This document shows, in pieces, positions 5,690 to 20,887 of a stretch of DNA of 24,000 nt (position 1 is its first letter; every line of letters begins with the position of its first letter). Source of the stretch: Clostridia bacterium (GTDB lineage Bacteria; Bacillota; Clostridia; Oscillospirales; CAG-272); assembly GCA_017443595.1 (NCBI GenBank), contig JAFSYU010000026.1:1701-25700 (forward strand), in the 5' to 3' direction. A program made the position numbers and the translations under genes. Below the pieces are notes generated by a model. That model was not told where the DNA came from and did not search any database. It saw only the letters and a program-made list of their open reading frames with translations.

Positions 5690-5787
5690 TCTTACGAGTC
5701 CTCCGTGTCAGTTTCCCTTTGAGGATCACAGATACATGATCATTTCATTCAACTAAAGCGCCCGGCGGGTGATTTCTTTGACTATAG

Positions 5788-5820
5788 ACAAAGTCTGAAA
5801 CAGCAGACTTTGTTTTTTTA
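5788..5820 (+). terminator. Rho-independent terminator of the polymerase-to-cyclase gene string
   Basis: Perfect 10-bp stem ACAAAGTCTG (5788-5797) / CAGACTTTGT (5804-5813), 6-nt loop, then a run of 7 T. Confidence 0.8.
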
Positions 5821-5949
5821 TTATAACGGTGTGCCGGAAATAAAAAATACGCCTGCTGCCGATACCGGCTCCCGGAAGATTTTAAGCATGAAAGCGGATC
5901 TAAGTTTGTAGATTGTTATAATAAAGTATATAATTTATATTAAAACATC

Positions 5950-5978
5950 TTGATTTTTTTTGAATCTTATGGTATTAT
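5950..5978 (+). promoter_or_regulatory. Candidate sigma-A promoter of the STAS-NRPS-esterase operon
   Basis: TTGATT (5950-5955), 17-nt spacer, TGgTATTAT (TATTAT at 5973-5978). Lies in an AT-rich region. A second extended -10 (TGtTATAAT) sits about 60 nt further upstream. Confidence 0.45.
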
Positions 5979-6012
5979 AGAAAAAAAAGATCTATTGGAG
6001 GTATCATTCATT

Positions 6013-6309
6013 ATGCAAATCAACAAAATCCAGGAAGGAACAGCCCTGCTGATCAAACTCAGCGGACGTCTTGACACAACTACCGCGCCGGATCTTGAAG
6101 CGGAAGTGAACAGCTCTGTTGACGGTATCGAACAGATCACGTTTGATTTTACGGATCTTGAGTACATATCCTCCGCCGGACTGCGCGTTCTGCTTTATAC
6201 ACACAAGCGCATGAGCGGCAAGGGCGGACTGAAGATCACTCACGTATGCGAAACCGTTATGGAGATCTTTGAAGTCACAGGTTTTTCCGACATTCTGGAT
6301 ATCGAATAA
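6013..6309 (+). CDS. STAS-domain protein (SpoIIAA/RsbV-like anti-sigma-factor antagonist)
   Basis: 98 aa. GGAGG lies 11 nt before the ATG at 6013 (the track start at 5950 is a TTG with no RBS). The pattern LSGRLDTTTAPDLE...FDFTDLEYISSAGLRVLL...THVCETVMEIFEVTGF is the canonical STAS layout. The Ser pair at 6169-6174 sits where SpoIIAA is phosphorylated. Confidence 0.85.
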   Translation: MQINKIQEGTALLIKLSGRLDTTTAPDLEAEVNSSVDGIEQITFDFTDLEYISSAGLRVLLYTHKRMSGKGGLKITHVCETVMEIFEVTGFSDILDIE

Positions 6310-6328
6310 CAAACGGAGGATTTATCGT

Positions 6329-9319
6329 ATGGAAACGATCATAGAGAAACTGCAAAGATATACAAAAGAAGACCCCAATGCCGTTATACTGTACGATGAA
6401 GCTCATTCAAACGGCATCTCCTACGCCATGCTTGACGATATGTCCGGCCGCGTTTACGCTTATCTGAAAGCGAACGGGATAGGCAAAGAGGATTTTGTCC
6501 TTATCAATCTGCCGCGCGGAGTATTGCCGATAATCGCCATGGTCGGTATCTGGAAAGCCGGAGCCGCGTGGGCTCTTGTTGAAGATACGTACGCGCCGGA
6601 CCGTATCGCTTATATACGCGAGGACTGCGGCTGCAAATTCGAGCTGTCCGCTTCGAACTGGGAAGAAGTCATGCGCACAGAACCGCTTGCCGGCCACGAG
6701 GAAGTTGACGAGCACGACGCGGCGTACGCGATCTACACCTCCGGTACGACCGGAAATCCCAAAGGCGTGCTTCACGAATACGGAAACCTTGAACGCGCCA
6801 TCGAATCTATAAAGGTCGGCGGCGTCAACCCGTTCAGCGGCAAGGACCGCCTGGCAACGCTTGCTCCGATGAATTTTGTTGCGACCGTCATAGTTATTTT
6901 GTCGGGCTTAAACGTTTTCCGCGGCAAAAACTTTATAGTCTCTTACGCGACTATAAAAAATCCCGCGGCGCTGGCAAAATTCTTTATTACAAAGCGCATC
7001 ACCATAACGTTTTTGACGCCTTCATACGTCCGTATGCTCGGCAATCAGACGGGACCGTTTCTGCGTATGCTGTTTGTCGGCTCCGAGCCTGCGAACAACA
7101 TCTACAACAAGAATCTTGATCTTATAAATATTTACGCGTGCAGCGAGTCCGGATTTGCGGTAGGAGTTTTCCGGATAGACCGTTCTTATGAGACGTGTCC
7201 CGTAGGCAAACCCGAGGTCAATACGGTGATCACGCTTATATCCGAAGAAGGAAATGAAGTAGCAGACGGCGAGATGGGCGAGCTTTGCTTTGAAAACCCG
7301 TACGTCAGAGGATACATAAACTTACCGGAGGAGACGAAAAAATCGTTTGTTGACAAAGTGTTCCACACCGGCGACCTTGCCCGCAAAGACGAAAAGGGCA
7401 ACTACGTACTGCTCGGACGCTCAAACGATATGATAAAGATAAACGGCAACCGCATAGAGCCGGCTGAAATAGAAGCCGCCGTAAAACAGGCGCTGGGTAT
7501 AGACTGGGCGGCTGCCAAAGGTATTGACGCGGGCGGCAAGAGCTATCTGTGCGCATATTATACCGCGGATATAAAAGTTGACTCCGAGGCGCTGCGCGCC
7601 GAGCTTTTAAAGCGTCTGCCGTATTATATGATACCCTCTTACTATATCAAAATAGATTCCGTACCGCTGAAGCCGAACGGAAAGCTTGACCGCAAGGCGC
7701 TGCCGGTACCGGACGCAAAGGATTTTGCAAGCGACTACGCGGCTCCCACAAACGAGACAGAAGAAAAGCTCTGTCTTGCAATGGCAAAGGTGCTCAAGCT
7801 CTCGCAGGTCGGCATACATGACGACTTCTATGAAATGGGCGGAGACTCGCTCGGCTCCATCGAACTTATAACCGAATGCGATCTGCCCGGACTCAACGCC
7901 GGAGAGATATTCCGCGGAAGAACGCCGGAAAAGATAGCAAAGCTGTACGAAGAGCTCCATACCGGAGACGACGGCGTAAATCCCGATGAATTGAATGAAG
8001 CCGCGCTTGCATCGGAGCATCCGCTTACAGCCGAACAGCTGTATATGATAGACTATCAGCTCTACACACCGAATTCAACCATGTATAACCTCTTCTCCGT
8101 TATGAAAGTGGACAAGGAGATTTTCAATCTTACGAAGCTGGCGGAAGCTATGCAGACGGCGATCAAGGCGCATCCGGCGCTTCTGACGACATTCGGCTAC
8201 AATGACGACGGTGAGATCGTACAGCGCTGCTCGCTTGATAACCTGCCGGATATACACGTTGAAAAGCTGACCGAATTCGAATTCAAGTACGTTAAGGATA
8301 CGCTCGTATATCCGTTCAAGATAATCGGCGGAAGACTTTGCCGCTGTCGCATTTTTGAAACGGAAAAAGCCGGTTATATATTCTTTGACGTACATCATTC
8401 ACTGTTTGACGGCACGTCGCTGAAAGTTTTCCTCGGCGGCGTGGTGAAGGCTTATATGGGCATGCCTATAGAGCCTGACTACTACTATCTTATGTTAAAG
8501 AACCGCGAAGAAGCGATCCACACCGATTTCTACGAGGAAAGCAAGCGTTACTTCGAAGAACATTATGACAACGTGGAATGGTCAAGTTATCCGAAAATCG
8601 ACCATGAATCAAGAGATAACGAAATGGGAGAGCTGTTTGCTTCTCTTAACATTGAACAGCCGCAGATGACCGCAATGGAGCGCGCTTATAAGATAAGCCG
8701 CAACGAGTTCTTCATCACAGTCGCGGCGCTCGCCATATCGATCTACAACAACAAACCGGATATAAAACTCTCGTGGATATATAACGGCCGTGAAGACGTA
8801 CAGATGATGTCAAGCGTAGGTCTTCTGTTCCGCGATCTGCCGGTCGCTTTCCGCTTTAAAGACAGCGACACGCTGCGCAACGTTTTCGCAGACGTTCACG
8901 AACAGGTACAGAAGGGAATAGAGCACAGCTGTTATCCTTACGTTGACCTGCACAATCAGGTCGCGCAGGGAGAGAGCGCATATCTTTTGTATCAGCAGGA
9001 TATACGCGACATGGGCGGCTTTGAAGGTTTTGATATCACGCCGGTCGAAGTACGTCAGAACCAGGCGGCTTCACAGACGATACTTGATATGGAGATACTT
9101 GACGGTCAGGACGGTCTGCAGCTTATGATAGACTTTGCCGCGAGCCGTTATAACGAAGCAAGCATTGAAAAATTCAAAGATATCTACGTAAAGCTTGCTC
9201 AGGCGCTTGTAACGCACAATTCACAGAAAGACGTTACCATAGGCGAGATCAAGGCGAAGATCGACGACAAAAAGTCGTTCTTCAGCGTCGTTAAGGGTAT
9301 CTTCTCAAGGAAGAAATAA
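6329..9319 (+). CDS. Single-module nonribosomal peptide synthetase, domain order A-T-C (996 aa)
   Basis: GGAGG RBS 8 nt before the ATG at 6329. A domain (~6329-7723): A3 YTSGTTGNPKG (6734-6766), A6 GELCFENPYVRGY, A7 FHTGDLA, A8 GRSNDMIKINGNRIEPAEIE, A10 PNGKLDRKAL. T domain: FYEMGGDSLGS with Ser at 7847-7849. C domain (~8012-9316): HHSLFDG at 8393-8413. Confidence 0.92.
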   Translation: METIIEKLQRYTKEDPNAVILYDEAHSNGISYAMLDDMSGRVYAYLKANGIGKEDFVLINLPRGVLPIIAMVGIWKAGAAWALVEDTYAPDRIAYIREDCGCKFELSASNWEEVMRTEPLAGHEEVDEHDAAYAIYTSGTTGNPKGVLHEYGNLERAIESIKVGGVNPFSGKDRLATLAPMNFVATVIVILSGLNVFRGKNFIVSYATIKNPAALAKFFITKRITITFLTPSYVRMLGNQTGPFLRMLFVGSEPANNIYNKNLDLINIYACSESGFAVGVFRIDRSYETCPVGKPEVNTVITLISEEGNEVADGEMGELCFENPYVRGYINLPEETKKSFVDKVFHTGDLARKDEKGNYVLLGRSNDMIKINGNRIEPAEIEAAVKQALGIDWAAAKGIDAGGKSYLCAYYTADIKVDSEALRAELLKRLPYYMIPSYYIKIDSVPLKPNGKLDRKALPVPDAKDFASDYAAPTNETEEKLCLAMAKVLKLSQVGIHDDFYEMGGDSLGSIELITECDLPGLNAGEIFRGRTPEKIAKLYEELHTGDDGVNPDELNEAALASEHPLTAEQLYMIDYQLYTPNSTMYNLFSVMKVDKEIFNLTKLAEAMQTAIKAHPALLTTFGYNDDGEIVQRCSLDNLPDIHVEKLTEFEFKYVKDTLVYPFKIIGGRLCRCRIFETEKAGYIFFDVHHSLFDGTSLKVFLGGVVKAYMGMPIEPDYYYLMLKNREEAIHTDFYEESKRYFEEHYDNVEWSSYPKIDHESRDNEMGELFASLNIEQPQMTAMERAYKISRNEFFITVAALAISIYNNKPDIKLSWIYNGREDVQMMSSVGLLFRDLPVAFRFKDSDTLRNVFADVHEQVQKGIEHSCYPYVDLHNQVAQGESAYLLYQQDIRDMGGFEGFDITPVEVRQNQAASQTILDMEILDGQDGLQLMIDFAASRYNEASIEKFKDIYVKLAQALVTHNSQKDVTIGEIKAKIDDKKSFFSVVKGIFSRKK

Positions 9320-9321
9320 TT

Positions 9322-10956
9322 ATGGAAGAATATCGCCCTAACCGTAAGATAGAGGGAGAATATGACAAAAGCCGTGCGGCGCAATGCATAAACGGCATAT
9401 TTGTCGGCAAAGAAAGTGAAGGAGTGACCGCTTTTCGCGGCATTCCTTTCGCTTTGCCTCCGGTAAAGGAGCTGCGGTGGAAAAAGCCCGCCCCGGTCGG
9501 ACCGTCGGATAGTGTTTTTGAAGCTCTGTATAACGGACCTTCTGCCATACAGACCGTTTTGGATTCGGAGAGGGCTTCGTTTTACCGTCAAAGCGAGGAC
9601 TGCCTTTATCTTAACGTATGGACAGCGGACGGCTTTGACGGTCAAAAACGCGCCGTTATGGTCTTTATACACGGAGGCAATTACGGCTGGGGAGGCACCG
9701 CGGATCCGCTTTACGACGGACACAACTTTGTAAAAGCGCACCCGGAGGTCGTGCTTGTCACCATCGCATACCGTGTGGGTATAACGGGATTTATCGATCT
9801 TTCGGAAGTACCGGGCGGGGAAGAGTATCCGTACAGCGGAAATCTCGGACTGCTTGATCAGATCTGCGCTTTGCGGTATATAAAGGAAAATATCGCCGCA
9901 TTCGGCGGCGACGCGGAGAATATCACGGTATTCGGAGAATCCGCCGGAGGCGGGAGCGTGTCGCTTTTGCCTCTTATCCCGGAGGCAAAAGGGCTGTTTT
10001 CCCGCGTTATCGCGCAAAGCGGCTCTGTTGCTTTAAGCTATAGCAGAAAAGAATGTCTGCCGCTCACGCGTGATCTGATGAAAAAAGCAAAAGCAAAAAA
10101 TATGGCGGATCTGCTCGCGCTGACGGAAGAACAGCTTATGGAAGTGAACAAAAAGCTGAAAGACAATAACAATTTTCCGGAGCGCGACGGCGTTGTATTG
10201 CCGGAAGATCCGTATGCCGCATACGATAACGCGGACGCTTTTCCCGTTGATATGCTGGAAGGAACAAACGCGGATGAACTCCGCTATTGGATACTTGACG
10301 TCGGAGGGCTTTTTATATACTGTCAAATGAGCTACATGCTGTTCGGCAGCGCGGTAAAGCAATTTGAAAAATCAGACAAAGCGCGTGCAAAAAGCTTTAT
10401 TGAACTGCAGAAGTCCGAAGGGATCCGCGGCAAGCCGTGGCGGATAACGGAATTTTTCAACGAGCTTATATTCAGACTGCCCGCGATACGTCAGGGCGAA
10501 GCCCACGCAAAAAACGGGAACAGAGTGTTTTTATACTACTGGGATCAACCGTCGGCTATCCCTGATCTTAAAGCCTGCCACGCGGTAGAACTCGCATACG
10601 TGTTCAACAATACGGAAGACACGATATATACCGGCGGCGGTGTTAATGAAGAACTTGCGCGGCAGGTGCAGAAAATGTGGGTGAATTTTGCCGTAAACGG
10701 CGATCCGTCGACCGATAACGTAAAGTGGGAGCCTTATTCCGAAACGTCGCGCAGCACCATGATCTTAGGGCAAAACACACGTGTTGAAAAAGACTGGAAA
10801 GAGCAGGAGAGAAAGTGCCTGACACCGCTTTTAAAGTACAATTTAAACGGCAATTCCGCCGCGCCCTCGGTCGATATAAAGAAGATATTGATCATAGCCG
10901 GTGCGGTGATCGCGGCTGTCGGAGCGTCAGTGCTGCTGCGGCTGCTTTTCAGGTAA
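9322..10956 (+). CDS. Type-B carboxylesterase/lipase (PnbA-like) with a C-terminal transmembrane anchor
   Basis: The ATG lies 2 nt after the NRPS stop. Motifs: EDCLYLNVW, oxyanion FIHGGNYGWG, nucleophile elbow FGESAGG (Ser at 9940-9942), His region ACHAVELAYVF. Last 23 aa ILIIAGAVIAAVGASVLLRLLFR (10885-10953) are hydrophobic. No N-terminal signal peptide. Confidence 0.9.
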   Translation: MEEYRPNRKIEGEYDKSRAAQCINGIFVGKESEGVTAFRGIPFALPPVKELRWKKPAPVGPSDSVFEALYNGPSAIQTVLDSERASFYRQSEDCLYLNVWTADGFDGQKRAVMVFIHGGNYGWGGTADPLYDGHNFVKAHPEVVLVTIAYRVGITGFIDLSEVPGGEEYPYSGNLGLLDQICALRYIKENIAAFGGDAENITVFGESAGGGSVSLLPLIPEAKGLFSRVIAQSGSVALSYSRKECLPLTRDLMKKAKAKNMADLLALTEEQLMEVNKKLKDNNNFPERDGVVLPEDPYAAYDNADAFPVDMLEGTNADELRYWILDVGGLFIYCQMSYMLFGSAVKQFEKSDKARAKSFIELQKSEGIRGKPWRITEFFNELIFRLPAIRQGEAHAKNGNRVFLYYWDQPSAIPDLKACHAVELAYVFNNTEDTIYTGGGVNEELARQVQKMWVNFAVNGDPSTDNVKWEPYSETSRSTMILGQNTRVEKDWKEQERKCLTPLLKYNLNGNSAAPSVDIKKILIIAGAVIAAVGASVLLRLLFR

Positions 10957-10982: not shown

Positions 10983-11008
10983 GCCGACTGTTCTTAAGGA
11001 CAGTCGGC
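10983..11008. repeat. Near-perfect 26-nt palindrome GCCGACTGTTCTT/AAGGACAGTCGGC
   Basis: 13+13 nt with one mismatch, 27 nt after the esterase stop. No T-run follows, so it is not a canonical terminator. Confidence 0.8.
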
Positions 11009-11009
11009 A

Positions 11010-11190
11010 GCGAAATCCACCCTGTCGGGTGGGTGAAATCGCCTGCGGCGGTGAAATTGCCCTGCGGGCAGTGAAATCCGCCTCGGCGGCGGGTGGGTGG
11101 ATTTCATTTCACCGAACGCGACAGTGTTCGATTTCACCTGAGGGCGACGCCCGAAGATTTCACCTTTTGCCGTAAGGCAAAAGATTTCAC
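11010..11190. repeat. Array of short, sequence-diverse hairpins separated by a conserved heptamer (G[C/T]GAAAT x4, then ATTTCAC x4)
   Basis: GCGAAAT at 11010; GTGAAAT at 11033, 11051 and 11071; ATTTCAC at 11106, 11131, 11157 and 11184. Hairpins between them: CCACCC/GGGTGG (11017-11032), CGCC/GGCG (11040-11050), TGCCC/GGGCA (11058-11070), CCGCC/GGCGG (11078-11089), CGAAC/GTTCG (11113-11130), GGGC/GCCC (11142-11152), CTTTTGCC/GGCAAAAG (11164-11183). A further hairpin GACGTTT/AAACGTC lies at 11197-11217. Confidence 0.85.
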
Positions 11191-11243
11191 TATTCTGACG
11201 TTTGGCACACAAACGTCCTGCTTGCGTCGATCTGCGACAAAAA

Positions 11244-11288
11244 CCGACTGAAATAAGGATTTTTCCTTACCTCAGCCGGTTTTTATTT
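11244..11288 (+). terminator. Probable rho-independent terminator
   Basis: Imperfect 15-nt stem CCGACTGAAATAAGG / CCTTACCTCAGCCGG (12 of 15 pairs), loop ATTTTT, then TTTTTATTT. Confidence 0.5.
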
Positions 11289-11438
11289 ACTGTCCTTCAG
11301 AGCACCTCGCGCATACAAGGTCTTTTTTATCCGCAAAAGATCCGTTAAGATCCGATTCCGGGTCGGAAACGACAGAAATACTATAAAAACATCCGGTTCA
11401 ACTCCGATTATATTAAGGAATAAATTTTTAAAATATTA

Positions 11439-11467
11439 TTGAAAAGTATAAATATAACTACTACAAT
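11439..11467 (+). promoter_or_regulatory. Candidate promoter of the LysR gene
   Basis: TTGAAA (11439-11444), 17-nt spacer, TACAAT (11462-11467), 45 nt upstream of the ATG at 11512. Confidence 0.45.
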
Positions 11468-11511
11468 ATAATCAGTTGATAATTCAAATAATCAAACGCT
11501 GTGAGGACGGT

Positions 11512-12453
11512 ATGAACCTTCTTAACATGAAATACGCGATCGCTATCGCTGAAACAAAGTCGCTCAACAAAGCGGCGGAAAAACTTTATATAGGTCAGCC
11601 TGCGCTCAGCCGTTCCATAAAAGAGCTTGAGGCAAATCTCGGCACGTCGCTTTTTGAGCGCAGCGTAAAGGGAATGACGCTTACGCCGGACGGTGAAAAA
11701 TTCATCCGCTACGCCAAGGTCATTTTGAACAAGGTAGACGAGATAGAGGAGATGTTCAAGACCGAAACGGATAACAAGATCAGGTTTTCCATATGTGTGC
11801 CGAGGGTCAGCTATATCTGCGACGCGTTCGTCAATTTCACAAGACACTTAAAAAACGACGGCAGCATTGAGATATTTTATCAGGAAACGAACGCCATGCG
11901 CGCGGTAAAGAACATTTTAAACGACGACTATAAGCTGGGCGTTGTGCGCTTTGCGGAAAGCTATGCTAAGTATTATGACGATATGTTCCGCGAAAAATCG
12001 CTTGAAAGCAGGATAATAACTCGGTTTAAATACGTTCTTATAATGAGCCGTCATTCGCCGCTTGCCAAGCTTGAGCAGATAACCTTTGACGATCTCGGCG
12101 ATTATATAGAGATCGCGCACGCGGATCCGTACGTTCCTTCTCTTCCCGTTTCCGAGGTCAAAAAAGAGGAGTTGTCTGATAACTGCCAAAGACACATATT
12201 CGTATTTGAGCGCGGTTCACAGTTCCAGCTTTTGTCAGAAAACGTGGATACGTTTATGTGGGTGTCGCCCGTGCAGAAGTCGCTTCTTGAAAAATTTGAC
12301 CTTGTGCAGAGGTACTGCGTTGACAACAACCGCGAGTATAACGACGTGCTTATCTACCGCGACGATTACAGATTATCTCAGCTTGACAATATGTTTATAG
12401 AGGAGCTCGTTTACTCAAAACGCGTCAACCTTGACAACTGCATAATCAAGTAA
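11512..12453 (+). CDS. LysR-family transcriptional regulator
   Basis: N-terminal HTH MNLLNMKYAIAIAETKSLNKAAEKLYIGQPALSRSIKELEANLGTSLFERSVKGMTLTPDGEKF is the classic LysR signature, with a ~200-aa effector domain after it. GAGGA RBS before the ATG at 11512; the track start at 11476 has no RBS. Confidence 0.9.
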   Translation: MNLLNMKYAIAIAETKSLNKAAEKLYIGQPALSRSIKELEANLGTSLFERSVKGMTLTPDGEKFIRYAKVILNKVDEIEEMFKTETDNKIRFSICVPRVSYICDAFVNFTRHLKNDGSIEIFYQETNAMRAVKNILNDDYKLGVVRFAESYAKYYDDMFREKSLESRIITRFKYVLIMSRHSPLAKLEQITFDDLGDYIEIAHADPYVPSLPVSEVKKEELSDNCQRHIFVFERGSQFQLLSENVDTFMWVSPVQKSLLEKFDLVQRYCVDNNREYNDVLIYRDDYRLSQLDNMFIEELVYSKRVNLDNCIIK

Positions 12454-12508
12454 CTTTCCGGTTTTTGATACCGGTTATCAAAAATTCTCATTATCAATAT
12501 CAAAAAAA

Positions 12509-12544
12509 GCAGACGAATCTTACAAAAAACGCCTGCTTTTTTTG
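12509..12544 (+). terminator. Rho-independent terminator after the LysR gene
   Basis: Stem GCAGACG (12509-12515) / CGCCTGC (12530-12536) with one mismatch, then TTTTTTT. Confidence 0.55.
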
Positions 12545-12578
12545 TGTATTTTTACGTTTTTTACAAACGCCGCGCCGT

Positions 12579-12623
12579 ATACCGTAAATCAAAATCATAC
12601 CGTTTACCAAAAGTGATAACGGT
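12579..12623. promoter_or_regulatory. Candidate regulator-binding motifs upstream of the hydrogenase promoter
   Basis: Direct repeat ATACCGT at 12579-12585 and 12597-12603. Inverted repeat ACCGTT (12599-12604) - N13 - AACGGT (12618-12623). The motifs end 17 nt upstream of the -35. Confidence 0.3.
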
Positions 12624-12639
12624 GTTGCTTTATAGGCAT

Positions 12640-12668
12640 TTTACATTAAGGAATTTATGTGTTATTAT
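12640..12668 (+). promoter_or_regulatory. Sigma-A promoter of the hydrogenase/adhE gene string
   Basis: TTTACA (12640-12645), 17-nt spacer, TGtTATTAT (TATTAT at 12663-12668), 34 nt upstream of the hydC start. Confidence 0.55.
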
Positions 12669-12701
12669 GAGCCTGCGAAATAAAACGTCAAAGGAAAGGA
12701 A

Positions 12702-13199
12702 ATGTACATGAACGAAAACTTTGATTATAGCGTAGTGGAATCCATACTGCAGGAACATCAGTGCAGTGAAAAAGCGATAATCGCAATACTGCAGGACGTT
12801 CAGGAACACTATCACTACCTGCCGTCGGAAGCATTTCCGTATATGGCAAAAAAACTTAACGTAAGCGAGGCGCGCATTTACAGCGTGGCGACCTTTTACG
12901 AAAATTTCTCACTTGAACCCAAAGGCAAATACGTTGTCAAGGTATGTGACGGCACGGCGTGCCACGTAAGAAAATCCATACCGATACTTGACAGGCTCCG
13001 CGCGGAGCTCGGACTTTCCGAAAAAAAGAAAACAACGGATGATCTTTTGTTTACGGTGGAGACCGTTTCCTGCCTCGGCGCCTGCGGGCTTGCCCCGGTA
13101 ATGACGGTAAACGACAAGGTACACCCCGCCATGACTCCGGAAAAAGCATCCGCGCTCATAAAAGAACTGATAGAGAAGGAGAAAAACAATGCTGACTGA
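12702..13199 (+). CDS. hydC: [FeFe]-hydrogenase subunit HydC (NuoE-like thioredoxin-fold [2Fe-2S] protein)
   Basis: CDGTACH ... CLGACGLAPV (Cx4C...Cx3C NuoE pattern), 165 aa, overlapping hydB by 11 nt. An alternative ATG at 12708 is equally RBS-compatible. Confidence 0.9.
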   Translation: MYMNENFDYSVVESILQEHQCSEKAIIAILQDVQEHYHYLPSEAFPYMAKKLNVSEARIYSVATFYENFSLEPKGKYVVKVCDGTACHVRKSIPILDRLRAELGLSEKKKTTDDLLFTVETVSCLGACGLAPVMTVNDKVHPAMTPEKASALIKELIEKEKNNAD

Positions 13200-15063
13200 C
13201 AGGCAGGAATTTCTTTCATATAAGGAAAAAGTCGCCAAAGCGTACGAAATGCAGCAAAGAAAGATAATCGTCTGCTGCGGTACGGGCTGTGTTGCCGGCG
13301 GATCGCTTGACGTTTACGCCAAGCTCAAAGAGCTTATGGAAGCAGAGGGCATAAACGTTGAGGTCACACTTGAAGAAGAACCGCACAAAAACAACGTAGG
13401 ACTTAAAAAGAGCGGCTGTCACGGCTTCTGCGAAATGGGACCGCTTGTAAGAATTGAGCCGCACGGCTGGCTTTACACAAAGGTCCACGTGGAAGACTGC
13501 GAAGAGATAGTTGAAAAAACGATCAAAAACGGCGAATTCATAGACAGACTCGCCTACAGAATAAACGGACAGATATACAAAGAGCAGGAAGAGATACCGT
13601 TTTACAAAAGACAAAAACGCATAGTCCTTGATCTTTGCGGAAAAATAGACGCGGACTCCATAGGCGAATACATCGCCGTAGGCGGTTACACCGCAGCCGT
13701 AAAAGCGATGTTTGAAATGAACGGCGAGCAGATAGTTGACGAGGTCAAAAAATCCGGTATCCGCGGAAGGGGCGGCGCGGGATTCCCGACCGGAATCAAG
13801 TGGGATACGGTAAGAAAGACCGAATCCGACAAAAAGTACGTCGTCTGCAACGGCGACGAGGGCGACCCCGGCGCGTTCATGGACAGAAGCATCATGGAAG
13901 GCGCTCCCCACAGAGTGCTTGAAGGCATGATAATAGCCGGTATCGCATGCGGCGCCGATGAAGGATACATCTACGTGCGCGCGGAATATCCGCTGGCCGT
14001 CAAGAGACTCAAAAACGCCATCAAACAGGCGGAAGAGCTCGGAATACTCGGCGAGAATATCCTCGACTCCGGTTTCTCATTCAAAATACACATCAACAGA
14101 GGCGCGGGAGCGTTCGTCTGCGGCGAGGAAACGGCGCTTATTAATTCCATAGAAGGACAGCGCGGCTTTCCGAGAGTAAGACCGCCTCTGACCGTCATAA
14201 AAGGACTTTTCGGCAAGCCCACGGTTCCAAACAACGTTGAAACGTACGCAAACATCCCGAACATAATTAACAACGGCGGCGAGTGGTACAGCAGCATAGG
14301 CACGCAGAACAGCCCCGGAACAAAGGCGTTTGCGCTGACCGGCAACATAAACAACACCGGTCTGATAGAAGTTCCCATGGGAACTACGCTCCGCGAGATA
14401 ATATTCGACATAGGCGGAGGAATGAAGAACGGCGGAGAATTCAAAGCCGTGCAGATAGGCGGTCCGTCCGGCGCCTGCCTTACAAAAGAACATCTTGACC
14501 TGCCGCTTGACTTTGACAATCTGAAAAAAGTCGGCGCTATGGTCGGCTCCGGCGGTCTGGTTGTCGTTGACGAACATACCTGCATGGTTGAATTTGCAAG
14601 ATTCTTCATGCACTTCACGCAGAATGAATCGTGCGGCAAATGCGTGCCCTGCCGCGAAGGCACGAAGCGTATGCTCCAGATACTTGAGCGTATAGTGGCG
14701 GGCGAGGGAAGAGACGGAGACATAGAGCTTTTGCTCGAGCTTGCGGACACGATATGCAACACCGCGTTATGCGGTCTCGGCAAAACGGCGCCTAACCCCG
14801 TTATCAGCACAATAAAGAACTTCAGAAGCGAATATGAGGCGCATATTTACGATAAGAAATGCCCGGCGGGAGCGTGCAGCAAGCTCAAGACGATAAAGAT
14901 AGACCCGCAGATCTGCAAAGGCTGCTCCAAGTGCGCGCGCCAGTGCCCCGTAAACGCTATAAGCGGCAAGATAAAAGAGCCGTTTGAAATAGACCTTTCA
15001 AAGTGCATAAGATGCGGAAGCTGCGTATCGGCATGCCCGTTCAAGGCTATCAAGGAGGGATGA
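13189..15063 (+). CDS. hydB: [FeFe]-hydrogenase subunit HydB (NuoF-like NAD(H)/FMN subunit)
   Basis: N-terminal [2Fe-2S] pattern (CCGTGC...CHGFC). FMN/NADH region GRGGAGFPTG and CNGDEGDPGAF. [4Fe-4S] ESCGKCVPCREG. C-terminal 2x[4Fe-4S] CKGCSKCARQCP / CIRCGSCVSACP. Confidence 0.93.
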   Translation: MLTDRQEFLSYKEKVAKAYEMQQRKIIVCCGTGCVAGGSLDVYAKLKELMEAEGINVEVTLEEEPHKNNVGLKKSGCHGFCEMGPLVRIEPHGWLYTKVHVEDCEEIVEKTIKNGEFIDRLAYRINGQIYKEQEEIPFYKRQKRIVLDLCGKIDADSIGEYIAVGGYTAAVKAMFEMNGEQIVDEVKKSGIRGRGGAGFPTGIKWDTVRKTESDKKYVVCNGDEGDPGAFMDRSIMEGAPHRVLEGMIIAGIACGADEGYIYVRAEYPLAVKRLKNAIKQAEELGILGENILDSGFSFKIHINRGAGAFVCGEETALINSIEGQRGFPRVRPPLTVIKGLFGKPTVPNNVETYANIPNIINNGGEWYSSIGTQNSPGTKAFALTGNINNTGLIEVPMGTTLREIIFDIGGGMKNGGEFKAVQIGGPSGACLTKEHLDLPLDFDNLKKVGAMVGSGGLVVVDEHTCMVEFARFFMHFTQNESCGKCVPCREGTKRMLQILERIVAGEGRDGDIELLLELADTICNTALCGLGKTAPNPVISTIKNFRSEYEAHIYDKKCPAGACSKLKTIKIDPQICKGCSKCARQCPVNAISGKIKEPFEIDLSKCIRCGSCVSACPFKAIKEG

Positions 15064-15065
15064 AA

Positions 15066-16769
15066 ATGACACAAAAACAGTATATGACCGTTGACGGGAT
15101 ACCGGTAGAGATCAACGGTGAAAAAAATCTGCTTGAAATAGTCAGAAAGCTCGGCATAAAAATGCCCACGTTCTGCTATCACTCCGAGCTTTCGGTCTAC
15201 GGCGCGTGCCGTATGTGCATGGTAGAAAATGAAAGGGGCGGTCTTGACGCGGCGTGCTCCACTCCTCCGAGACCCGGCATGGAAATAAAGACAAACACGG
15301 AAAGGCTCCGCCGTTACCGCAAGAACATACTTGAGCTGCTTCTGGCAAATCACTGCCGCGACTGCACGACCTGCGAGAGCAACACGCAGTGCAAGCTCCA
15401 GGATCTTGCGATGACTTTCAATATAGAAGGCGTAAGATTCCCGAACAGCGCAAAATCCACCGTAAACGACGACACGTCATCGGTCTGCATAACCCGCGAC
15501 GCCGGAAAATGCATACTCTGCGGCGACTGCGTCAGAATGTGCAACGAAACACAGCACGTCGGCGCCATAGACTTTGCGTTCAGAGGTTCAAAAATGACGA
15601 TAAGCACGGCTTTCGGCAAGCCGATAGCGGAATCGCCCTGCGTAGGCTGCGGCCAGTGCGCGGCGGTCTGCCCCACGGGCGCGATAGTCGTTAAAAACGA
15701 TATGGATAAAGTTTGGGCGGCGCTTGACGATCCCAACGTCAAGACCACGGTGCAGGTAGCTCCGGCGGTCCGCGTGGCGGTCGGCAGAGAGCTCGGCTGC
15801 GGAAGCGGCGAAAACGTCATGGGCAAGATAGTCGCGGCTCTGCGCAGACTCGGCTTCAACGAAATATACGATACTATCCTCGGCGCCGATCTTACGGTAA
15901 TCGAGGAGAGCGAGGAGTTCTTACAGAGAGTCGAATCAGGCGAAAAGCTTCCGCTCATAACCTCCTGCTGCCCCGGCTGGATAAGATTCTGCGAAAAGAA
16001 ATTCCCGGAATTTCTGCCTAACGTTTCGACCTGCCGTTCGCCTATGCAGATGTTCGCCTCGATCTTATACGATCAGGGAAAGAAATCTTCCAAAAAACAG
16101 TTCAACGTCGCCGTAATGCCCTGCACGGCAAAGAAATTTGAGGCGGCGAGAGACGAATTCAAAACAGACGGAGAAAAACACGTTGACGCGGTGCTTACAA
16201 CACAGGAGCTTATCCGCATGATAAAAGAGTCAAACATCGTGTTCAGAGAGCTTGAGCCGGAAGCGGTCGATATGCCTTTCGGAACCATCTCCGGCGCCGG
16301 ACTCATATTCGGCGTGACGGGCGGCGTTACCGAAGCGGTGCTTCGCCGCGTGGTATCGAACAAATCCTACTCCGGACTTATAAGCATTTCACACGCCGGA
16401 CAGCGCGGACGCGACGGAATAAAAGAATTTACGTTCCCGTACGGCGAGACCGAGCTTAAGATAGCCGTTGTAAGCGGGCTCGGCAATGCGGAAGAGATAC
16501 TTAACAGAGTAAAAGCGGGAGAACACTTTGACTTCATTGAGATCATGGCTTGTCCCGGCGGCTGCGTAAGCGGCGGCGGTCAGCCCTTTGCACCGTCACC
16601 CGAACATCGGAAGCGCGATAAGGGCATGTATGAATCCGAAAGACAGCTTTCCATCAGACGTTCCGAAGAAAACCCGGTGATCACAACGCTTTACCGCGAT
16701 ATCATCAAAGGCAAGGTACACGAGCTGCTCCACGTTGATTACGTAAAGGACGGAGGATCAACAAAATGA
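15066..16769 (+). CDS. hydA: Catalytic [FeFe]-hydrogenase subunit HydA (bifurcating-type architecture)
   Basis: AGGAGGG RBS, then ATG at 15066. N-terminal [2Fe-2S] CYHSELSVYGACRMC. FeS clusters CILCGDCVRMC / CVGCGQCAAVCP. All three canonical H-cluster motifs are present: TSCCPGW, MPCTAKKFE, EIMACPGGCVSGGGQP. Confidence 0.93.
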   Translation: MTQKQYMTVDGIPVEINGEKNLLEIVRKLGIKMPTFCYHSELSVYGACRMCMVENERGGLDAACSTPPRPGMEIKTNTERLRRYRKNILELLLANHCRDCTTCESNTQCKLQDLAMTFNIEGVRFPNSAKSTVNDDTSSVCITRDAGKCILCGDCVRMCNETQHVGAIDFAFRGSKMTISTAFGKPIAESPCVGCGQCAAVCPTGAIVVKNDMDKVWAALDDPNVKTTVQVAPAVRVAVGRELGCGSGENVMGKIVAALRRLGFNEIYDTILGADLTVIEESEEFLQRVESGEKLPLITSCCPGWIRFCEKKFPEFLPNVSTCRSPMQMFASILYDQGKKSSKKQFNVAVMPCTAKKFEAARDEFKTDGEKHVDAVLTTQELIRMIKESNIVFRELEPEAVDMPFGTISGAGLIFGVTGGVTEAVLRRVVSNKSYSGLISISHAGQRGRDGIKEFTFPYGETELKIAVVSGLGNAEEILNRVKAGEHFDFIEIMACPGGCVSGGGQPFAPSPEHRKRDKGMYESERQLSIRRSEENPVITTLYRDIIKGKVHELLHVDYVKDGGSTK

Positions 16770-17017
16770 TAACCGTTAAGATATGCGTCGGCACAAACTG
16801 TCACTTAAACGGCGGATACAACGTGATCTCATCTTTTCAGCATATGATAGAGGAATACGATCTTCATGACAAGGTAGTTCTGGAAGCATCCTTCTGCATG
16901 AGAGAATGCTCAAACAGCGGAGCTGCCGTAACGGTGAACGACGTAAAATACAGGGTAGACCCGGAAAGATCAAGACTCTTTTTCAAAGAAAAGGTACTGC
17001 CCCTTACGATCAGCTAA
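16766..17017 (+). CDS. Small thioredoxin-like [2Fe-2S] ferredoxin-domain protein (paralogue 1 of 3)
   Basis: 83 aa. The ATG overlaps the hydA stop (ATGA). C7-x4-C12 ... C44-x3-C48 (CVGTNC...CMREC) is the same spacing as in HydC/NuoE. Confidence 0.75.
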   Translation: MITVKICVGTNCHLNGGYNVISSFQHMIEEYDLHDKVVLEASFCMRECSNSGAAVTVNDVKYRVDPERSRLFFKEKVLPLTIS

Positions 17018-17104
17018 ACACTATATATATTGACAGGCGCGCAGCGGCGGATCCCACCACCTTTCCGCCGCCGCAAAACCGAATAAAATGAGGAGAAATG
17101 TATT

Positions 17105-19804
17105 ATGGATGTCAACAAAAGAGAAGCCGTTGACGGCGTCAGCAAACTTGAAGAAGCTCTGAGCAGAGTCAGAGCCGCACAGAAAAAGTTTTCCGCCTAC
17201 ACGGAAGAACAGGTAGATAGTATATTCAAAGCCGCGGCAACAGCGGCAAACCGGGCCCGTCTTCCGCTTGCCAAGCTTGCGGTAGAAGAAACGGGTATGG
17301 GCGTTGTTGAAGACAAGGTGATCAAAAACAACTACGCCGCCGAGCATATCTATAACGCATACAGGAACGTAAAGACCTGCGGCGTGATCTGGGAAGACAA
17401 ATCATACGGAACAAAGAAAATTGCGGAGCCCGTCGGTATAATCGGCGCGGTCATCCCAACCACGAACCCGACGTCCACGGCTATATTCAAATGCCTTATC
17501 TCGCTTAAAACGAGAAACGGCATAGTCATAAGCCCCCATCCGAGAGCAAAAAGATCGACTATCGAGGCGGCTAAGATTATACTTGACGCCGCGGTCAAAG
17601 CCGGCGCGCCCGAGGGAATAATCGAATGGATAGACGTCCCGTCTCTTGAAATGACCAATCTTCTTATGAAGGAAGCGGATATCATCCTCGCCACCGGCGG
17701 TCCCAGCATGGTAAAAGCCGCGTATTCCTCAGGCAAACCCGCGGTCGGCGTCGGCCCCGGCAACACCCCGGCAATAATAGACGAATCAGCCGATATCCTG
17801 CTTGCCGTAAGCTCCGTCATCCATTCCAAAACGTTTGACAACGGTATGATCTGCGCGTCAGAGCAATCGGTCATAGTACACGATAAAATATATAACAAAG
17901 TAAGAGAAGAATTCGCTTCCAGAGGCTGTTATTTCTTAAAAGGCGACGAAACGGAAAAAGTAAGAAAAACGATCCTTATAAACGGCGCGCTCAACGCCGG
18001 TATAGTAGGCCAGAAGGCGTCAAGGATCGCGGAACTTGCCGGCGTCAAAGTTCCCGAGGGAACAAAGGTGCTTATAGGAGAGGTGGAAAGCGTTGATCCT
18101 TCCGAGGAATTCGCGCACGAAAAACTGTCTCCGGTACTTGCCATGTATCACGCCAAAGACATTCAGGACGCTTTTGCCAAAGCGGAACGTCTTATAGCTG
18201 ACGGCGGCTACGGCCACACCTCTTCCATATATCTTGACACAACAAAGGCTCAGGACGTTTTGGACGAATTTTCAAGCCGTATGAAGACCTGCCGCATACT
18301 CGTGAACACCCCGTCTTCTCAGGGCGGCATAGGCGACCTTTACAACTTCAAGCTCGCTCCCTCGCTCACGCTCGGCTGCGGCTCATGGGGCGGCAACAGC
18401 GTATCCGAAAACGTCGGAGTAAAACACCTGCTCAACATAAAAACAGTTGCCGAAAGGAGAGAAAACATGCTTTGGTTCCGCGCACCCGAAAAGGTATATA
18501 TAAAAAAAGGCTGTCTGCCCGTTGCGCTTGACGAGCTGAAGACGGTCATGAACAAAAAGAAAGCGTTCATAGTGACCGACAGCTTCTTGTATTCGCACGG
18601 CTGCACGAAGCCGATAACGGATAAGCTTGATGAAATGGGAATCGAACATTCCGTATTCTTCAACGTCGCTCCCGATCCCACTCTCGCCTGCGCAAAAGAA
18701 GGCGCGGCTCAGATGGCGGCGTTCCGGCCGGACTGCATAATCGCGCTCGGCGGCGGCTCCGCAATGGACGCGGGCAAGATCATGTGGGTGATGTACGAAC
18801 ATCCCGACGTGGACTTCATGGATATGGCCATGCGCTTTATCGATATCAGAAAAAGAGTTTACACGTTCCCGAAAATGGGTGAAAAAGCGTATTTCGTAGC
18901 TATCCCGACCTCAGCCGGCACAGGCTCCGAGGTAACGCCTTTCGCGGTCATTACCGACGAGCAGAGCGGCGTAAAATATCCGCTTGCAGACTATCAGCTC
19001 ATGCCGAACATGGCTATAATAGATACGGATTTCCATATGACAGCTCCTAAAGGACTTACGGCGGCGTCCGGTATAGACGCGGTAAGCCACGCGCTTGAAG
19101 CGTACGCTTCCGTTATGGCTACCGATTACACGGACGGACTTGCAAAACAGGCGCTGCAGACGATATTCAAATATCTGCCGAGAGCTTACGAAAACGGACT
19201 TACCGACGTTGAAGCGCGTGAAAAAATGGCAAACGCGGCAACTATGGCGGGTATGGCGTTTGCAAACGCTTTCTTAGGCGTTTGCCACTCCATGGCTCAC
19301 AAGCTCGGCGCTTTCCATCACATCCCGCACGGCGTTGCAAACGCTCTCATGCTTGAAGAGGTGCTGAGATACAACTCCGCTGAAGCTCCCGTAAAAATGG
19401 GCACTTTCTCACAGTACGCATATCCGCATACGCTCAGAAGATACGCGGAAGTCGCGGAAAGCCTCGGTCTTTCCGGCGCGGACGATAAGGAAAAACTTGA
19501 AAGCCTTATAAAAGCGATCAACGATCTTAAAGCCGTCGTCGGCATCAAACCTACGATAAGAGATTACGTACCGGACGAAAAAGACTTCCTTGACAGACTT
19601 GACGCCATGGTAGAGCAGGCGTTTGACGATCAGTGCACCGGCGCAAACCCTAGATATCCGCTTATGAGCGAGATAAAGCAGATGTATCTTAACGCATATT
19701 ACGGCAAACACTTTACGGAGCCGCAGATGCCCAAGACGTCCGCTTCGGAATTGACAAGCGATCCTCACGATTTCAAACGCGTCTACAGCAAAGCTAAAAT
19801 ATAA
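17105..19804 (+). CDS. adhE: Bifunctional acetaldehyde-CoA / alcohol dehydrogenase
   Basis: 899 aa with an AGGAG RBS. ALDH half carries the catalytic Cys motif FDNGMICASEQS. Fe-ADH half has GGGSAMDAGK and the metal ligands CHSMAHKLGAFHHIPHG. Confidence 0.94.
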   Translation: MDVNKREAVDGVSKLEEALSRVRAAQKKFSAYTEEQVDSIFKAAATAANRARLPLAKLAVEETGMGVVEDKVIKNNYAAEHIYNAYRNVKTCGVIWEDKSYGTKKIAEPVGIIGAVIPTTNPTSTAIFKCLISLKTRNGIVISPHPRAKRSTIEAAKIILDAAVKAGAPEGIIEWIDVPSLEMTNLLMKEADIILATGGPSMVKAAYSSGKPAVGVGPGNTPAIIDESADILLAVSSVIHSKTFDNGMICASEQSVIVHDKIYNKVREEFASRGCYFLKGDETEKVRKTILINGALNAGIVGQKASRIAELAGVKVPEGTKVLIGEVESVDPSEEFAHEKLSPVLAMYHAKDIQDAFAKAERLIADGGYGHTSSIYLDTTKAQDVLDEFSSRMKTCRILVNTPSSQGGIGDLYNFKLAPSLTLGCGSWGGNSVSENVGVKHLLNIKTVAERRENMLWFRAPEKVYIKKGCLPVALDELKTVMNKKKAFIVTDSFLYSHGCTKPITDKLDEMGIEHSVFFNVAPDPTLACAKEGAAQMAAFRPDCIIALGGGSAMDAGKIMWVMYEHPDVDFMDMAMRFIDIRKRVYTFPKMGEKAYFVAIPTSAGTGSEVTPFAVITDEQSGVKYPLADYQLMPNMAIIDTDFHMTAPKGLTAASGIDAVSHALEAYASVMATDYTDGLAKQALQTIFKYLPRAYENGLTDVEAREKMANAATMAGMAFANAFLGVCHSMAHKLGAFHHIPHGVANALMLEEVLRYNSAEAPVKMGTFSQYAYPHTLRRYAEVAESLGLSGADDKEKLESLIKAINDLKAVVGIKPTIRDYVPDEKDFLDRLDAMVEQAFDDQCTGANPRYPLMSEIKQMYLNAYYGKHFTEPQMPKTSASELTSDPHDFKRVYSKAKI

Positions 19805-19822
19805 TACAGCGGGGTGATAGAT

Positions 19823-20572
19823 ATGAAGTTTGACAGAATGATAGCGGTAAGAAACAACAAAACCGTTTACAGAAGCGGAGATCTCTGCTACAAAGTATTT
19901 GACGACACATTTTCCAAAGCAAATATTTTAAACGAAGCTCTCAACCAGGCGAGAGTCGAAGAGACCGGACTTAAAATACCGAAGCTCCGCGAGGTCGGTA
20001 TAATAGACGGCAAATGGGCTATCGTTTACGAGTTCGTTGAAGGCAAAACACTTTCTCAGCTCATCACCGAGGACCCCGAAAACAAAAGCAAATATCTGCA
20101 CCGTCTTGTTGACGTACAGACGGAGATCAACTCAAAGACCTGCCCGCTTTTAACAAAGCATACGGACAAAATGAAGCGCAAAATTGCGGAAACCGATTTT
20201 GACGAGACGACGAAATATGAGTTGAACGTCAGACTTGAATCCATGCCTAAGCACAATAAACTGCTGCACGGAGATCTTACGCCGTCCAACGTCATAATCA
20301 CGCCGGCAGACGAGGCTTTCATAATCGACTGGTCGCACGCCACGCAGGGCAACGCGTCCGCGGACGCCGCAAGAACGTATCTCACCTTCTGGCTCAAGGG
20401 CGATATAGAAGGCGCGGAAGAATATCTTGATATATTCTGCGAGAAGAGCAATACGCCGAAAAAATACGTTCAGAAATGGATGTCTATAGTAGCGGCTTCA
20501 CAGAGCGTAAAGGGCAGCGAGAAGGAAGCGGAATTCTTAAAGAACTGGGTAAACGTTGCCGAGTATCAATAA
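19823..20572 (+). CDS. Kinase-fold phosphotransferase (APH / choline-kinase / Bud32-like), putative Ser/Thr kinase of the sensory module
   Basis: Starts 19 nt after the adhE stop (or GTG at 19814). Catalytic loop LLHGDLTPSNVII (Asp at 20273-20275), metal-binding FIIDWSHA, candidate ATP Lys in LCYKVF. No Gly-rich GxGxxG loop. Confidence 0.7.
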   Translation: MKFDRMIAVRNNKTVYRSGDLCYKVFDDTFSKANILNEALNQARVEETGLKIPKLREVGIIDGKWAIVYEFVEGKTLSQLITEDPENKSKYLHRLVDVQTEINSKTCPLLTKHTDKMKRKIAETDFDETTKYELNVRLESMPKHNKLLHGDLTPSNVIITPADEAFIIDWSHATQGNASADAARTYLTFWLKGDIEGAEEYLDIFCEKSNTPKKYVQKWMSIVAASQSVKGSEKEAEFLKNWVNVAEYQ

Positions 20573-20582
20573 GGAGTTTTGT

Positions 20583-20825
20583 ATGAAGGTAGTTGTTTGC
20601 ATAGGTTCCTCATGCTATATAAAAGGCTCCGGAAAGGTAGTCGATTATCTGCAGTATAAGATAAAACAGGACGGCGTGGGGAACAAGGTGGAACTTTCCG
20701 GTACTTTCTGCACCGGACAATGTCAGAAGGGCATTTGCGTATCGGTTGACGGCAAGCTTTATTCCGTATCGGTCGACAACGTGGAAGAATTCTACGAGGA
20801 AGAAATAAAAGCGAAACTCAAATAG
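20583..20825 (+). CDS. Small thioredoxin-like [2Fe-2S] ferredoxin-domain protein (paralogue 2 of 3)
   Basis: AAGGAG RBS 6 nt before the ATG at 20583 (the track start at 20556 lies inside the kinase gene). 80 aa, with CIGSSC...CTGQC. Confidence 0.75.
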   Translation: MKVVVCIGSSCYIKGSGKVVDYLQYKIKQDGVGNKVELSGTFCTGQCQKGICVSVDGKLYSVSVDNVEEFYEEEIKAKLK

Positions 20826-20831
20826 ATCGAT

Positions 20832-20862: not shown

Positions 20863-20887
20863 ATTGTGAAAATAAAGGAAAAAGATC

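Follow-up and report, generated by a model that had tools for sequence, protein, structure and literature searches.

We analysed a stretch of 24,000 nucleotides (nt), hereafter called the window, from the genome of a rumen Clostridia bacterium (assembly GCA_017443595.1, contig JAFSYU010000026.1, positions 1,701 to 25,700). Three consecutive genes on its forward strand are the subject of this study. They encode a protein consisting only of a STAS domain (6013-6309; 98 amino acids, aa), a single-module enzyme of the non-ribosomal peptide synthetase (NRPS) type, with adenylation, thiolation and condensation domains (A-T-C; 6329-9319; 996 aa), and a type-B carboxylesterase (9322-10956; 544 aa). 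An earlier note, made from the letters of this DNA, had described the genes as packed with gaps of 19 nt and 2 nt, which the coordinates of the open reading frames (ORFs) bear out, and profile searches recovered every domain it had named (STAS, A, T, C and COesterase). The note had opened the STAS frame at TTG 5950. The actual start is ATG 6013 and not this in-frame upstream codon, because ATG 6013 is preceded by GGAGG at ~5998 and all homologues of the protein are 98-105 aa long. The A-T-C gene has its own GGAGG ahead of ATG 6329.

Upstream, a terminator-like hairpin on the forward strand (5786-5815), with a 12-bp stem followed by the T-run TTTTTATTATA, closes the preceding transcription unit. 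The AT-rich region ahead of the STAS gene (5913-5978, forward strand) holds two sigma-70-like promoter candidates, both of them consensus matches only: TTGTTA-17-TATATT at 5913-5941, and TTGATT-17-TATTAT with a TG extension at 5950-5978. No strong terminator was found between the three genes, and Rfam, at the gathering threshold, gave no riboswitch or leader upstream of them, its only match being a Gut-1 RNA downstream. STAS, A-T-C and esterase form one tight three-gene operon. The other large ORFs of the window encode a Y-family polymerase, a DUF5700 protein, a cyclase, a LysR regulator, a NuoE/NuoF/[FeFe]-hydrogenase set, AdhE, an APH-like kinase, small 2Fe-2S proteins, a PAS-containing hydrogenase and a PP2C. 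As the earlier note had stated, there is no second NRPS or polyketide synthase, MbtH, phosphopantetheinyl transferase (PPTase), thioesterase or transporter among them (Pfam scans).

The domain structure of the A-T-C protein is supported by Pfam (AMP-binding 1.6e-48, PP-binding 2.6e-05, Condensation 4.1e-38), NCBIfam and structure alignments. On the forward strand, the adenylation domain spans aa ~9-460 (6353-7708), with an unusual A5 motif (NIYACSE) and the A10 lysine at Lys452. The thiolation, or carrier, domain follows at aa ~480-545 (7766-7963), with the phosphopantetheine serine, Ser507, in GGDSL (nt 7847-7849). The protein ends in a condensation domain at aa 563-969 (8015-9235), in which HHSLFDG occupies aa 689-695. 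This domain is distant from solved C domains, with TycC as the best match (1e-11), too far for its subtype to be assigned from solved structures. In an alignment of 81 family members, the A3 motif YTSGTTGNPKG, Lys452, Ser507 of GGDSL, and H689, H690, D694 and G695 of HHSLFDG are invariant. All three domains retain their catalytic residues, and the complete set of A, T and C motifs with a C-terminal condensation domain, as first read from the sequence, holds for the whole alignment. A search of the Protein Data Bank (PDB) gave a full-length alignment, at ~30% identity, to the A-T-C stretch of the linear gramicidin synthetase LgrA; the protein is therefore a genuine NRPS-type module. The top PDB matches were generic NRPS modules at about this identity, with no characterised A-T-C enzyme among them. 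A match to such an enzyme, with a coincidental STAS neighbour, had been listed in the earlier note as a result that would speak against it.

The substrate pocket is informative. The ten specificity positions, taken from the HMMER alignment with LgrA, read VAIFFGIFAK. Positions 235, 236, 278, 301, 331 and 517 are invariant in the 81 sequences and the remaining four nearly so, implying one defined substrate. Position 235, in the FD motif of LgrA, is Val and not Asp, and Asp235, the residue that binds the alpha-amino group, is replaced by Val in all 81 aligned sequences. The enzyme is therefore NRPS-like and would activate an acid rather than an amino acid. Adenylation domains that activate keto acids likewise have a hydrophobic residue instead of Asp235 (PMC10949194, PMC13643306). 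From the specificity code we conclude that the substrate is probably a single defined hydrophobic carboxylic acid other than an alpha-amino acid; the candidates are 2-oxo, 2-hydroxy and plain aliphatic or aryl acids.

Behind the condensation domain, the A-T-C protein carries a short, conserved, amphipathic and polybasic tail, KKSFFSVVKGIFSRKK (9263-9316, forward strand), with a hydrophobic moment of 0.58 over 11 aa. Within the last ~16 residues the pattern FF...F..K and the amphipathic-basic character are conserved, so that the tail may be a membrane-binding helix.

The esterase (9322-10956, forward strand) matches COesterase (PF00135) at 5.6e-93 and has the GESAGG nucleophile motif, the triad Ser207/Glu319/His420 and an HGG oxyanion hole. 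These residues (S207, E319, H420 and HGG) show no variation among 49 linked esterases of the A-T-C family loci. The protein ends in a hydrophobic helix, ILIIAGAVIAAVGASVLLRLLF, predicted as a transmembrane tail anchor (10885-10950, forward strand). Such a C-terminal helix is present in 38 of the 49 linked esterases, preceded by a conserved NPSY..D.NVPFVRK motif. Since the window esterase has no N-terminal signal sequence, it is most likely tail-anchored with its catalytic domain in the cytoplasm. The call of a tail-anchored carboxylesterase made in the earlier note thus stands.

The product of the first operon gene (6013-6309, forward strand) is a STAS protein in which the motifs YISSAGLRVLL and FEVTGF occur (Pfam STAS 1e-14; TIGR00377, the anti-sigma-factor antagonist superfamily, 7e-19). 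In alignments, its Ser54 (nt 6172-6174) falls on Ser58 of SpoIIAA, which is phosphorylated, and on the serine of RsbV. The equivalent residue is the second serine of Y[IV]SSAGLRVLL, a motif which, with FEVTGF, is common to the linked STAS proteins, and the serine and YxSSAGLR are conserved in 52 A-T-C neighbours. Identity with the sporulation protein SpoIIAA was rejected, as the score against TIGR02886 was 43.7 bits and the equivalog cut-off is 114.75.

Relatives of the A-T-C enzyme are numerous. A word-indexed search returned 2,966 matches at E < 1e-20, and the top 120 are 74-98% identical and 994-1015 aa long, except for one 926-aa fragment. Their source annotations are only 'AMP-binding protein', from metagenome-assembled genomes (MAGs) of Clostridia, Lachnospiraceae and Ruminococcus. 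An exhaustive search of 50%-identity representatives was swamped by giant multi-module NRPSs and is informative only for the number of single-module clusters. Three full-length clusters of this kind were found (72%, 50% and 50% identity), which means that the A-T-C family is tight. For the gene neighbourhoods, one genome per species was scanned, and 547 of 600 pattern-matched stretches were confirmed as A-T-C relatives. The locus counts given below rest on the best 80 of these 547, all full length and 66-89% identical to the window protein. Almost all of the 80 loci come from rumen or ruminant-gut MAGs, labelled as Ruminococcus, Oscillospiraceae, Lachnospiraceae, Butyrivibrio, Erysipelotrichaceae or 'Bacilli', and three belong to cultured strains (Ruminococcus sp. 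JE7B6, Ruminococcus sp. JL13D9 and Butyrivibrio sp. LC3010). Identities this high between families point to horizontal spread or to very strong constraint. For one 50%-identity sister clade (P0181), a metagenome scan yielded a single truncated locus with a Peptidase_C11-like gene upstream, which is uninformative about the gene association.

The ORFs called in the 80 loci were sorted by phmmer with window and locus proteins as queries. A STAS gene lies immediately upstream of A-T-C, on the same strand, in 34 of the 74 loci with enough upstream DNA. The gaps between the two genes range from -56 to +32 nt, with 32 of the 34 between -4 and +32, and six are 4-nt overlaps. Directly 3' of A-T-C there is an esterase gene in 46 of 72 loci, a MATE exporter gene (MatE) in 17 and another gene in nine. 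The order found in the window, STAS-ATC-EST, is the commonest class (14 loci), and the triad is conserved as neighbouring genes in related genomes; a lack of such conservation, which the earlier note had listed as evidence against its view, is thus not borne out. Many loci contain further genes besides the triad, in orders such as PP2C-RsbW-(MatE)-STAS-ATC-EST, ATC-MatE-STAS-(RsbW)-PP2C and STAS-ATC-EST-RsbW-PP2C. The linked kinases are of the HATPase_c_2, RsbW-like type with intact N, G1 and G2 boxes, and the linked PP2Cs have transmembrane and HAMP membrane-sensor parts. At least one partner-switching gene (STAS, RsbW-like kinase or PP2C) is present in 53 of the 80 loci, and all three in 18. 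In the 43 loci flanked by 3 kb or more on each side, STAS occurs in 30, PP2C in 22, the kinase in 16, and an esterase or MatE in 38. Precomputed Pfam calls, looked up independently, gave the same pattern.

The association of STAS with the A-T-C enzyme is almost certainly non-random. That the two genes merely happen to be adjacent is hardly credible: this STAS lineage is indeed numerous in these genomes and also occurs in other contexts, but two fixed orders recur over 80 species from different Firmicutes families, namely STAS directly upstream (34 of 74) and ATC-MatE-STAS(-RsbW)-PP2C (10 loci).

A sigma factor, the classical output of a partner switch, was looked for around the cassettes. Clustering of the unassigned neighbouring ORFs in the 80 loci gave no sigma family, and a Pfam scan of the 150 nearest unassigned ORFs gave no recurrent sigma-70 family. 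Probing with SigB and SigW sequences by phmmer detected a sigma factor in one of the 80 loci, a match that doubles as the positive control. This locus (L076) has a SigB/F-like gene at 13091-13870 (E 2.5e-33), ~570 nt past the PP2C and behind a 145-aa ORF, and it speaks for a sigma factor as the target of the switch. The other 17 loci with the full set of partner-switching genes have none nearby. In A-T-C loci, the enzyme gene occupies the usual position of the sigma gene.

A conventional partner switch could nevertheless operate here if the sigma factor were encoded elsewhere in the genome, with A-T-C and esterase as co-transcribed members of its regulon, as in autoregulated operons of the sigB type. 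In that case it would be transcription that is controlled. In favour of this, TIGR00377 places the STAS protein with the anti-sigma-factor antagonists, the kinases are of the HATPase_c_2 anti-sigma type, L076 has its SigB-like gene just beyond the PP2C, and close STAS paralogues in unrelated contexts are what a general signalling network would show. We nonetheless consider a distant sigma factor unlikely. In Firmicutes, the gene of an anti-sigma kinase normally adjoins that of its sigma factor, which is at odds with one sigma factor in 80 loci and none in the other 17 full sets. STAS is also often translationally coupled to A-T-C, as seen in the 4-nt overlaps. Furthermore, the rumen methanogen Methanobrevibacter ruminantium has the same gene set around an NRPS; archaea, to our knowledge, are without bacterial-type sigma factors, so the switch in this organism must act on something else.

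Our best reading, to which we give about an even chance on the basis of gene context, is that the locus makes a small acyl-amide or ester and that a STAS phospho-switch gates the enzyme itself, not a sigma factor. The A domain would adenylate a hydrophobic, non-alpha-amino carboxylic acid, as its specificity code suggests, and the activated acid would be loaded onto Ser507 of the T domain. As there is no downstream module, the terminal C domain would pass the acyl group to a free nucleophile. The architecture points to a small acyl-amide or ester as the product, and such a product, already proposed in the earlier note, is compatible with an A domain that lacks Asp235. The gene context suggests that it is handled at the membrane, where it could be exported, or hydrolysed and remodelled: A-T-C itself has the amphipathic, basic tail, and its partner is the esterase in the window, a MATE exporter in relatives, and sometimes both.

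The co-translated STAS protein would be the output end of a partner-switching module. In the fuller clusters, the membrane-sensor PP2C and the RsbW-like kinase would set the phosphorylation of the STAS serine, and STAS, or the kinase that it titrates, would act on the A-T-C enzyme instead of on a sigma factor. For example, dephosphorylated STAS or the released kinase could dock on A-T-C, perhaps at the carrier-domain interface as in the YchM STAS:acyl-carrier-protein complex, and thereby switch acyl-amide or ester synthesis on or off. Synthesis would thus be gated post-translationally. More tentatively, we suggest a phospho-relay of PP2C, RsbW-like kinase and STAS with an NRPS-like output, whose diffusible product, exported by MATE or trimmed by the esterase, could be a signal-gated molecule shared within the rumen. 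The phosphorylation-dependent control that the earlier note had proposed draws strong support, as far as gene context goes, from the conserved Ser54, the kinases and PP2Cs in the clusters of relatives, and the rarity of sigma genes; the window itself does not provide a linked kinase or phosphatase.

Several observations weigh against a switch acting on the enzyme. All regulatory support for it is gene context. Pfam scans of the large ORFs found neither a linked HATPase_c_2 kinase nor a linked PP2C in the window, and the APH-like kinase and PP2C encoded 9-12 kb downstream belong to a hydrogenase cluster. As a STAS kinase, this APH-like protein (19814-20572) was rejected, since it matches a STAS-fused APH kinase at only 22% identity (E 7e-05), and the PP2C (22828-24000) was rejected as a STAS phosphatase (E 0.002 to a linked PP2C). 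Thirteen of the 80 loci show ATC-EST only. Partner-switching genes are entirely absent from 11 well-flanked loci, whose A-T-C proteins cannot be told apart from the others; no residues were found that separate A-T-C proteins with partner-switching neighbours from those without. Three STAS proteins, 63-67% identical to that of the window, occur in other contexts, each before a gene for a ~190-aa protein, and in the tree they nest within the A-T-C-adjacent STAS. Their nesting means that the STAS lineage is not dedicated to the A-T-C enzyme, and it appears to be a general-purpose part that has been coupled to the enzyme and no dedicated subunit. A scan of recurrent neighbours found no PPTase encoded nearby, save in one variant cassette described below. 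Finally, the C domain is too divergent to subtype, so that the acceptor and the type of bond are guesses.

The membrane features of the locus allow a different function. In an envelope-modification cycle similar to the Dlt system, A-T-C would acylate a lipid, teichoic-acid or cell-wall precursor at the inner membrane face, the tail-anchored esterase would remove the acyl group, the MATE-family protein would move the modified carrier, and STAS would tune the chemistry of the envelope. The A domain resembles DltA (E 1e-27 to 4e-49), A-T-C has its amphipathic, basic tail, 38 of 49 esterases have a membrane anchor, VanY and PAP2 genes stand beside some variants, and known STAS-only switches often govern envelope polysaccharide enzymes. 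We regard such a cycle as improbable all the same, as scans of neighbouring ORFs found no MBOAT (DltB) or DltD partner in the window or the 80 loci, Asp235, which DltA keeps, is absent from A-T-C, the exporter matches the Pfam family of MatE drug and metabolite exporters and not Wzx or MurJ flippases, and no acceptor is indicated.

STAS could also be a substrate or carrier mimic whose conserved serine is acylated by the C domain and deacylated by the esterase, which would place a second mark in competition with phosphorylation. The circumstances in favour are a C domain with no obvious acceptor, the co-translation of STAS with A-T-C, the known STAS:acyl-carrier-protein complex, and the esterase as the commonest downstream gene. 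This idea is entirely speculative and very improbable: C domains are not known to acylate a serine of a protein, in a quarter of the loci MatE stands in place of the esterase, and many loci lack STAS.

The cassette occurs in several forms. In one variant (L006, L007 and L021; L021 194-8553), PAP2, a stand-alone carrier protein, STAS, several small ORFs, A-T-C, MatE and VanY lie together in this order. The carrier protein is 149 aa long and starts with a remnant of the A10 motif, and the small ORFs include an ACPS-type PPTase (L021 1902-2294). A multi-pass membrane protein of ~220-250 aa, with no Pfam match, is encoded just upstream of PP2C in L057 (1173-1919) and 8 further loci by phmmer; clustering by BLAST placed this family in 11 loci. 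A membrane-anchored ABC ATPase is encoded just downstream of the esterase in L030 (10705-12093) and 8 further loci. The sole tandem case among the 80 loci is L092, from a MAG labelled as Erysipelotrichaceae, where a second A-T-C-like ORF (11247-13309) follows the first at a distance of 2.3 kb.

STAS proteins of this kind also take other forms. Adjoining the A-T-C cassette, some loci encode a STAS domain fused to an APH-type, eukaryotic-like kinase (377-393 aa; Pfam STAS and APH), as in L023 (5749-6909), L027 (4577-5758, reverse strand) and L036 (2876-4009). These fusions may represent a STAS kinase alternative to the RsbW type. In addition, a STAS protein with 63-67% identity to that of the window recurs in a pair with a soluble protein of ~180-210 aa without a Pfam match, with STAS first in L098 (7001-7857), L100 (7001-8032) and L101 (7001-7898), and in reversed order in L024 (1381-2291). 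The ~190-aa partner was considered as a degenerate RsbW and rejected (hhalign probability 0.5%).

Downstream of the operon, the Gut-1 RNA (RF01706) is a full-length match on the forward strand at 11008-11082, scoring 75.7 bits against a gathering score of 50. It starts 51 nt past the esterase stop and is embedded in a stretch of hairpin repeats (~10985-11200) made of 'GTGAAAT + short GC hairpin' units, with a period of 18-20 in Tandem Repeats Finder (TRF). Gut-1 has the same position in L011, another contig of the same species; in another species it follows a tRNA upstream of STAS (L020 117-191), and it is missing from 9 other loci and is therefore no fixed part of the operon. In L011, esterase and Gut-1 are followed by an ORF of the 23S_rRNA_IVP family (13190-13540), in the place where the window has its LysR regulator (11476-12453), a strain-level variation at this junction. 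The remainder of the window, from 12702 to 24000, holds the NuoE/NuoF/[FeFe]-hydrogenase (HydABC-like) set, AdhE, the APH/RIO-like kinase (19814-20572), small 2Fe-2S thioredoxin-like ORFs, a PAS-containing, sensory-type [FeFe] hydrogenase (21159-22835) and the PP2C, which runs from 22828 to the window end (24000). In its make-up, this region is similar to the hydrogenase regulatory cluster of hfs/HydS type in Ruminococcus and Thermoanaerobacterium.

The rumen is rich in NRPS genes, with 5,346 clusters reported in 8,160 genomes (PMC8241843), and almost none of them has a known product or regulation. The A-T-C family is compact, highly conserved and widely shared, so that work on one member would serve to annotate hundreds of genomes. 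Should the STAS link prove direct, A-T-C would, to judge from our literature searches, be the first NRPS-type enzyme under post-translational partner-switching control, and it would add a new class of outputs other than sigma factors to partner-switching modules. With only 3-6 genes, and with cultured strains that carry it, the system is experimentally tractable.

The closest precedent for the gene combination is archaeal. In M. ruminantium M1, genes for STAS, two serine phosphatases and MatE lie on the flanks of the NRPS of mru0066-mru0071, and the authors guessed at sensing, regulation and export from annotation, with nothing tested (Leahy et al. 2010, PMC2812497). A further cluster of this methanogen has STAS, an anti-sigma kinase, a Ser phosphatase, a PPTase and an acyltransferase (PMC2812497). 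By description, the first cluster is like the family studied here in its rumen habitat and in combining an NRPS with STAS, Ser phosphatases and MatE. It differs in its two-module NRPS (C-A-T-C-A-T plus a release domain), its archaeal host and the absence of a carboxylesterase. The earlier note knew of no STAS and NRPS combination in described clusters. The association itself had thus been noted before; as to mechanism, our literature searches found no paper that ties STAS or partner switching to an NRPS. On our more tentative reading, the spread of the A-T-C cassette among rumen Firmicutes of several families, and the similar gene set around the NRPS of a rumen methanogen, would point to the proposed signal-gated molecule of the rumen community.

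Closest in logic is the fatty-acid-amide (FAA) pathway of gut Clostridia (Chang et al. 2021; OaaC, ecf/ebf; PMC13310621, PMC10871352), which is also NRPS-like. There, too, A, T and C join a non-amino acid to a free amine, with a hydrolase and a small accessory protein, and both systems occur in gut Clostridia. In contrast to the A-T-C family, the FAA domains are free-standing, the accessory protein is SCP2-like and not STAS, a PPTase is part of the cluster, no partner-switching genes are reported, and the C motif is (D/H)HxxxD[S/A] (PMC13310621) instead of the invariant HHxxxDG. Membership in the FAA pathway was rejected on the fused A-T-C architecture, the HHSLFDG motif, and the lack of an OaaC-like chain among the PDB matches.

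With the RsbV-RsbW-sigmaB and SpoIIAA-SpoIIAB-sigmaF systems, the locus shares the STAS serine, and its relatives share the HATPase_c_2 kinase and the SpoIIE-family PP2C (compare RsbU and SpoIIE). It differs from classical partner switching in clusters without a sigma factor (except in one of 80) and in a STAS protein well below the SpoIIAA cut-off (43.7 versus 114.75 bits). Phospho-switches whose output is an enzyme, as proposed here for A-T-C, are known: SiaC acts on the diguanylate cyclase SiaD (PMC8457831), HenR of Anabaena belongs to a STAS-glycosyltransferase system (PMC13555669), and Vibrio has SypA/SypE (PMC10120452); STAS-only regulators of enzymes have been reviewed (PMC8256260). Their known targets are a cyclase or glycosyltransferases, and no NRPS-type target has been described. 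A crystal complex of a STAS domain with acyl carrier protein has also been cited (Babu 2010, cited in PMC6147952).

The individual proteins have relatives of their own. The 2-keto-acid A domains of the cereulide and cryptophycin type also have a hydrophobic residue in place of Asp235, as Val235 in A-T-C, but sit in modules with a ketoreductase within large depsipeptide assembly lines, whereas A-T-C stands alone and has no ketoreductase. The esterase matches Bacillus p-nitrobenzyl esterase and Est50 over its full length (E ~1e-67 to 1e-69) and shares their Ser-Glu-His triad and HGG oxyanion hole; in addition, it has a conserved C-terminal transmembrane anchor and is genetically coupled to an NRPS-like gene. 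Assignment to the Dlt system was rejected, as the A domain reaches only 151.9-167.4 bits where the DltA cut-offs are 476 and 559.85, Asp235 is lacking, and the scans gave no MBOAT or DltD. Anti-phage defence was likewise rejected: PADLOC gave no match to the three proteins of the window, nor to a linked kinase and a linked PP2C. Set against these systems, the locus is best described as an acid-activating, single-module NRPS-like enzyme that is genetically hard-wired to a STAS phospho-switch and to membrane-level handling of its product.

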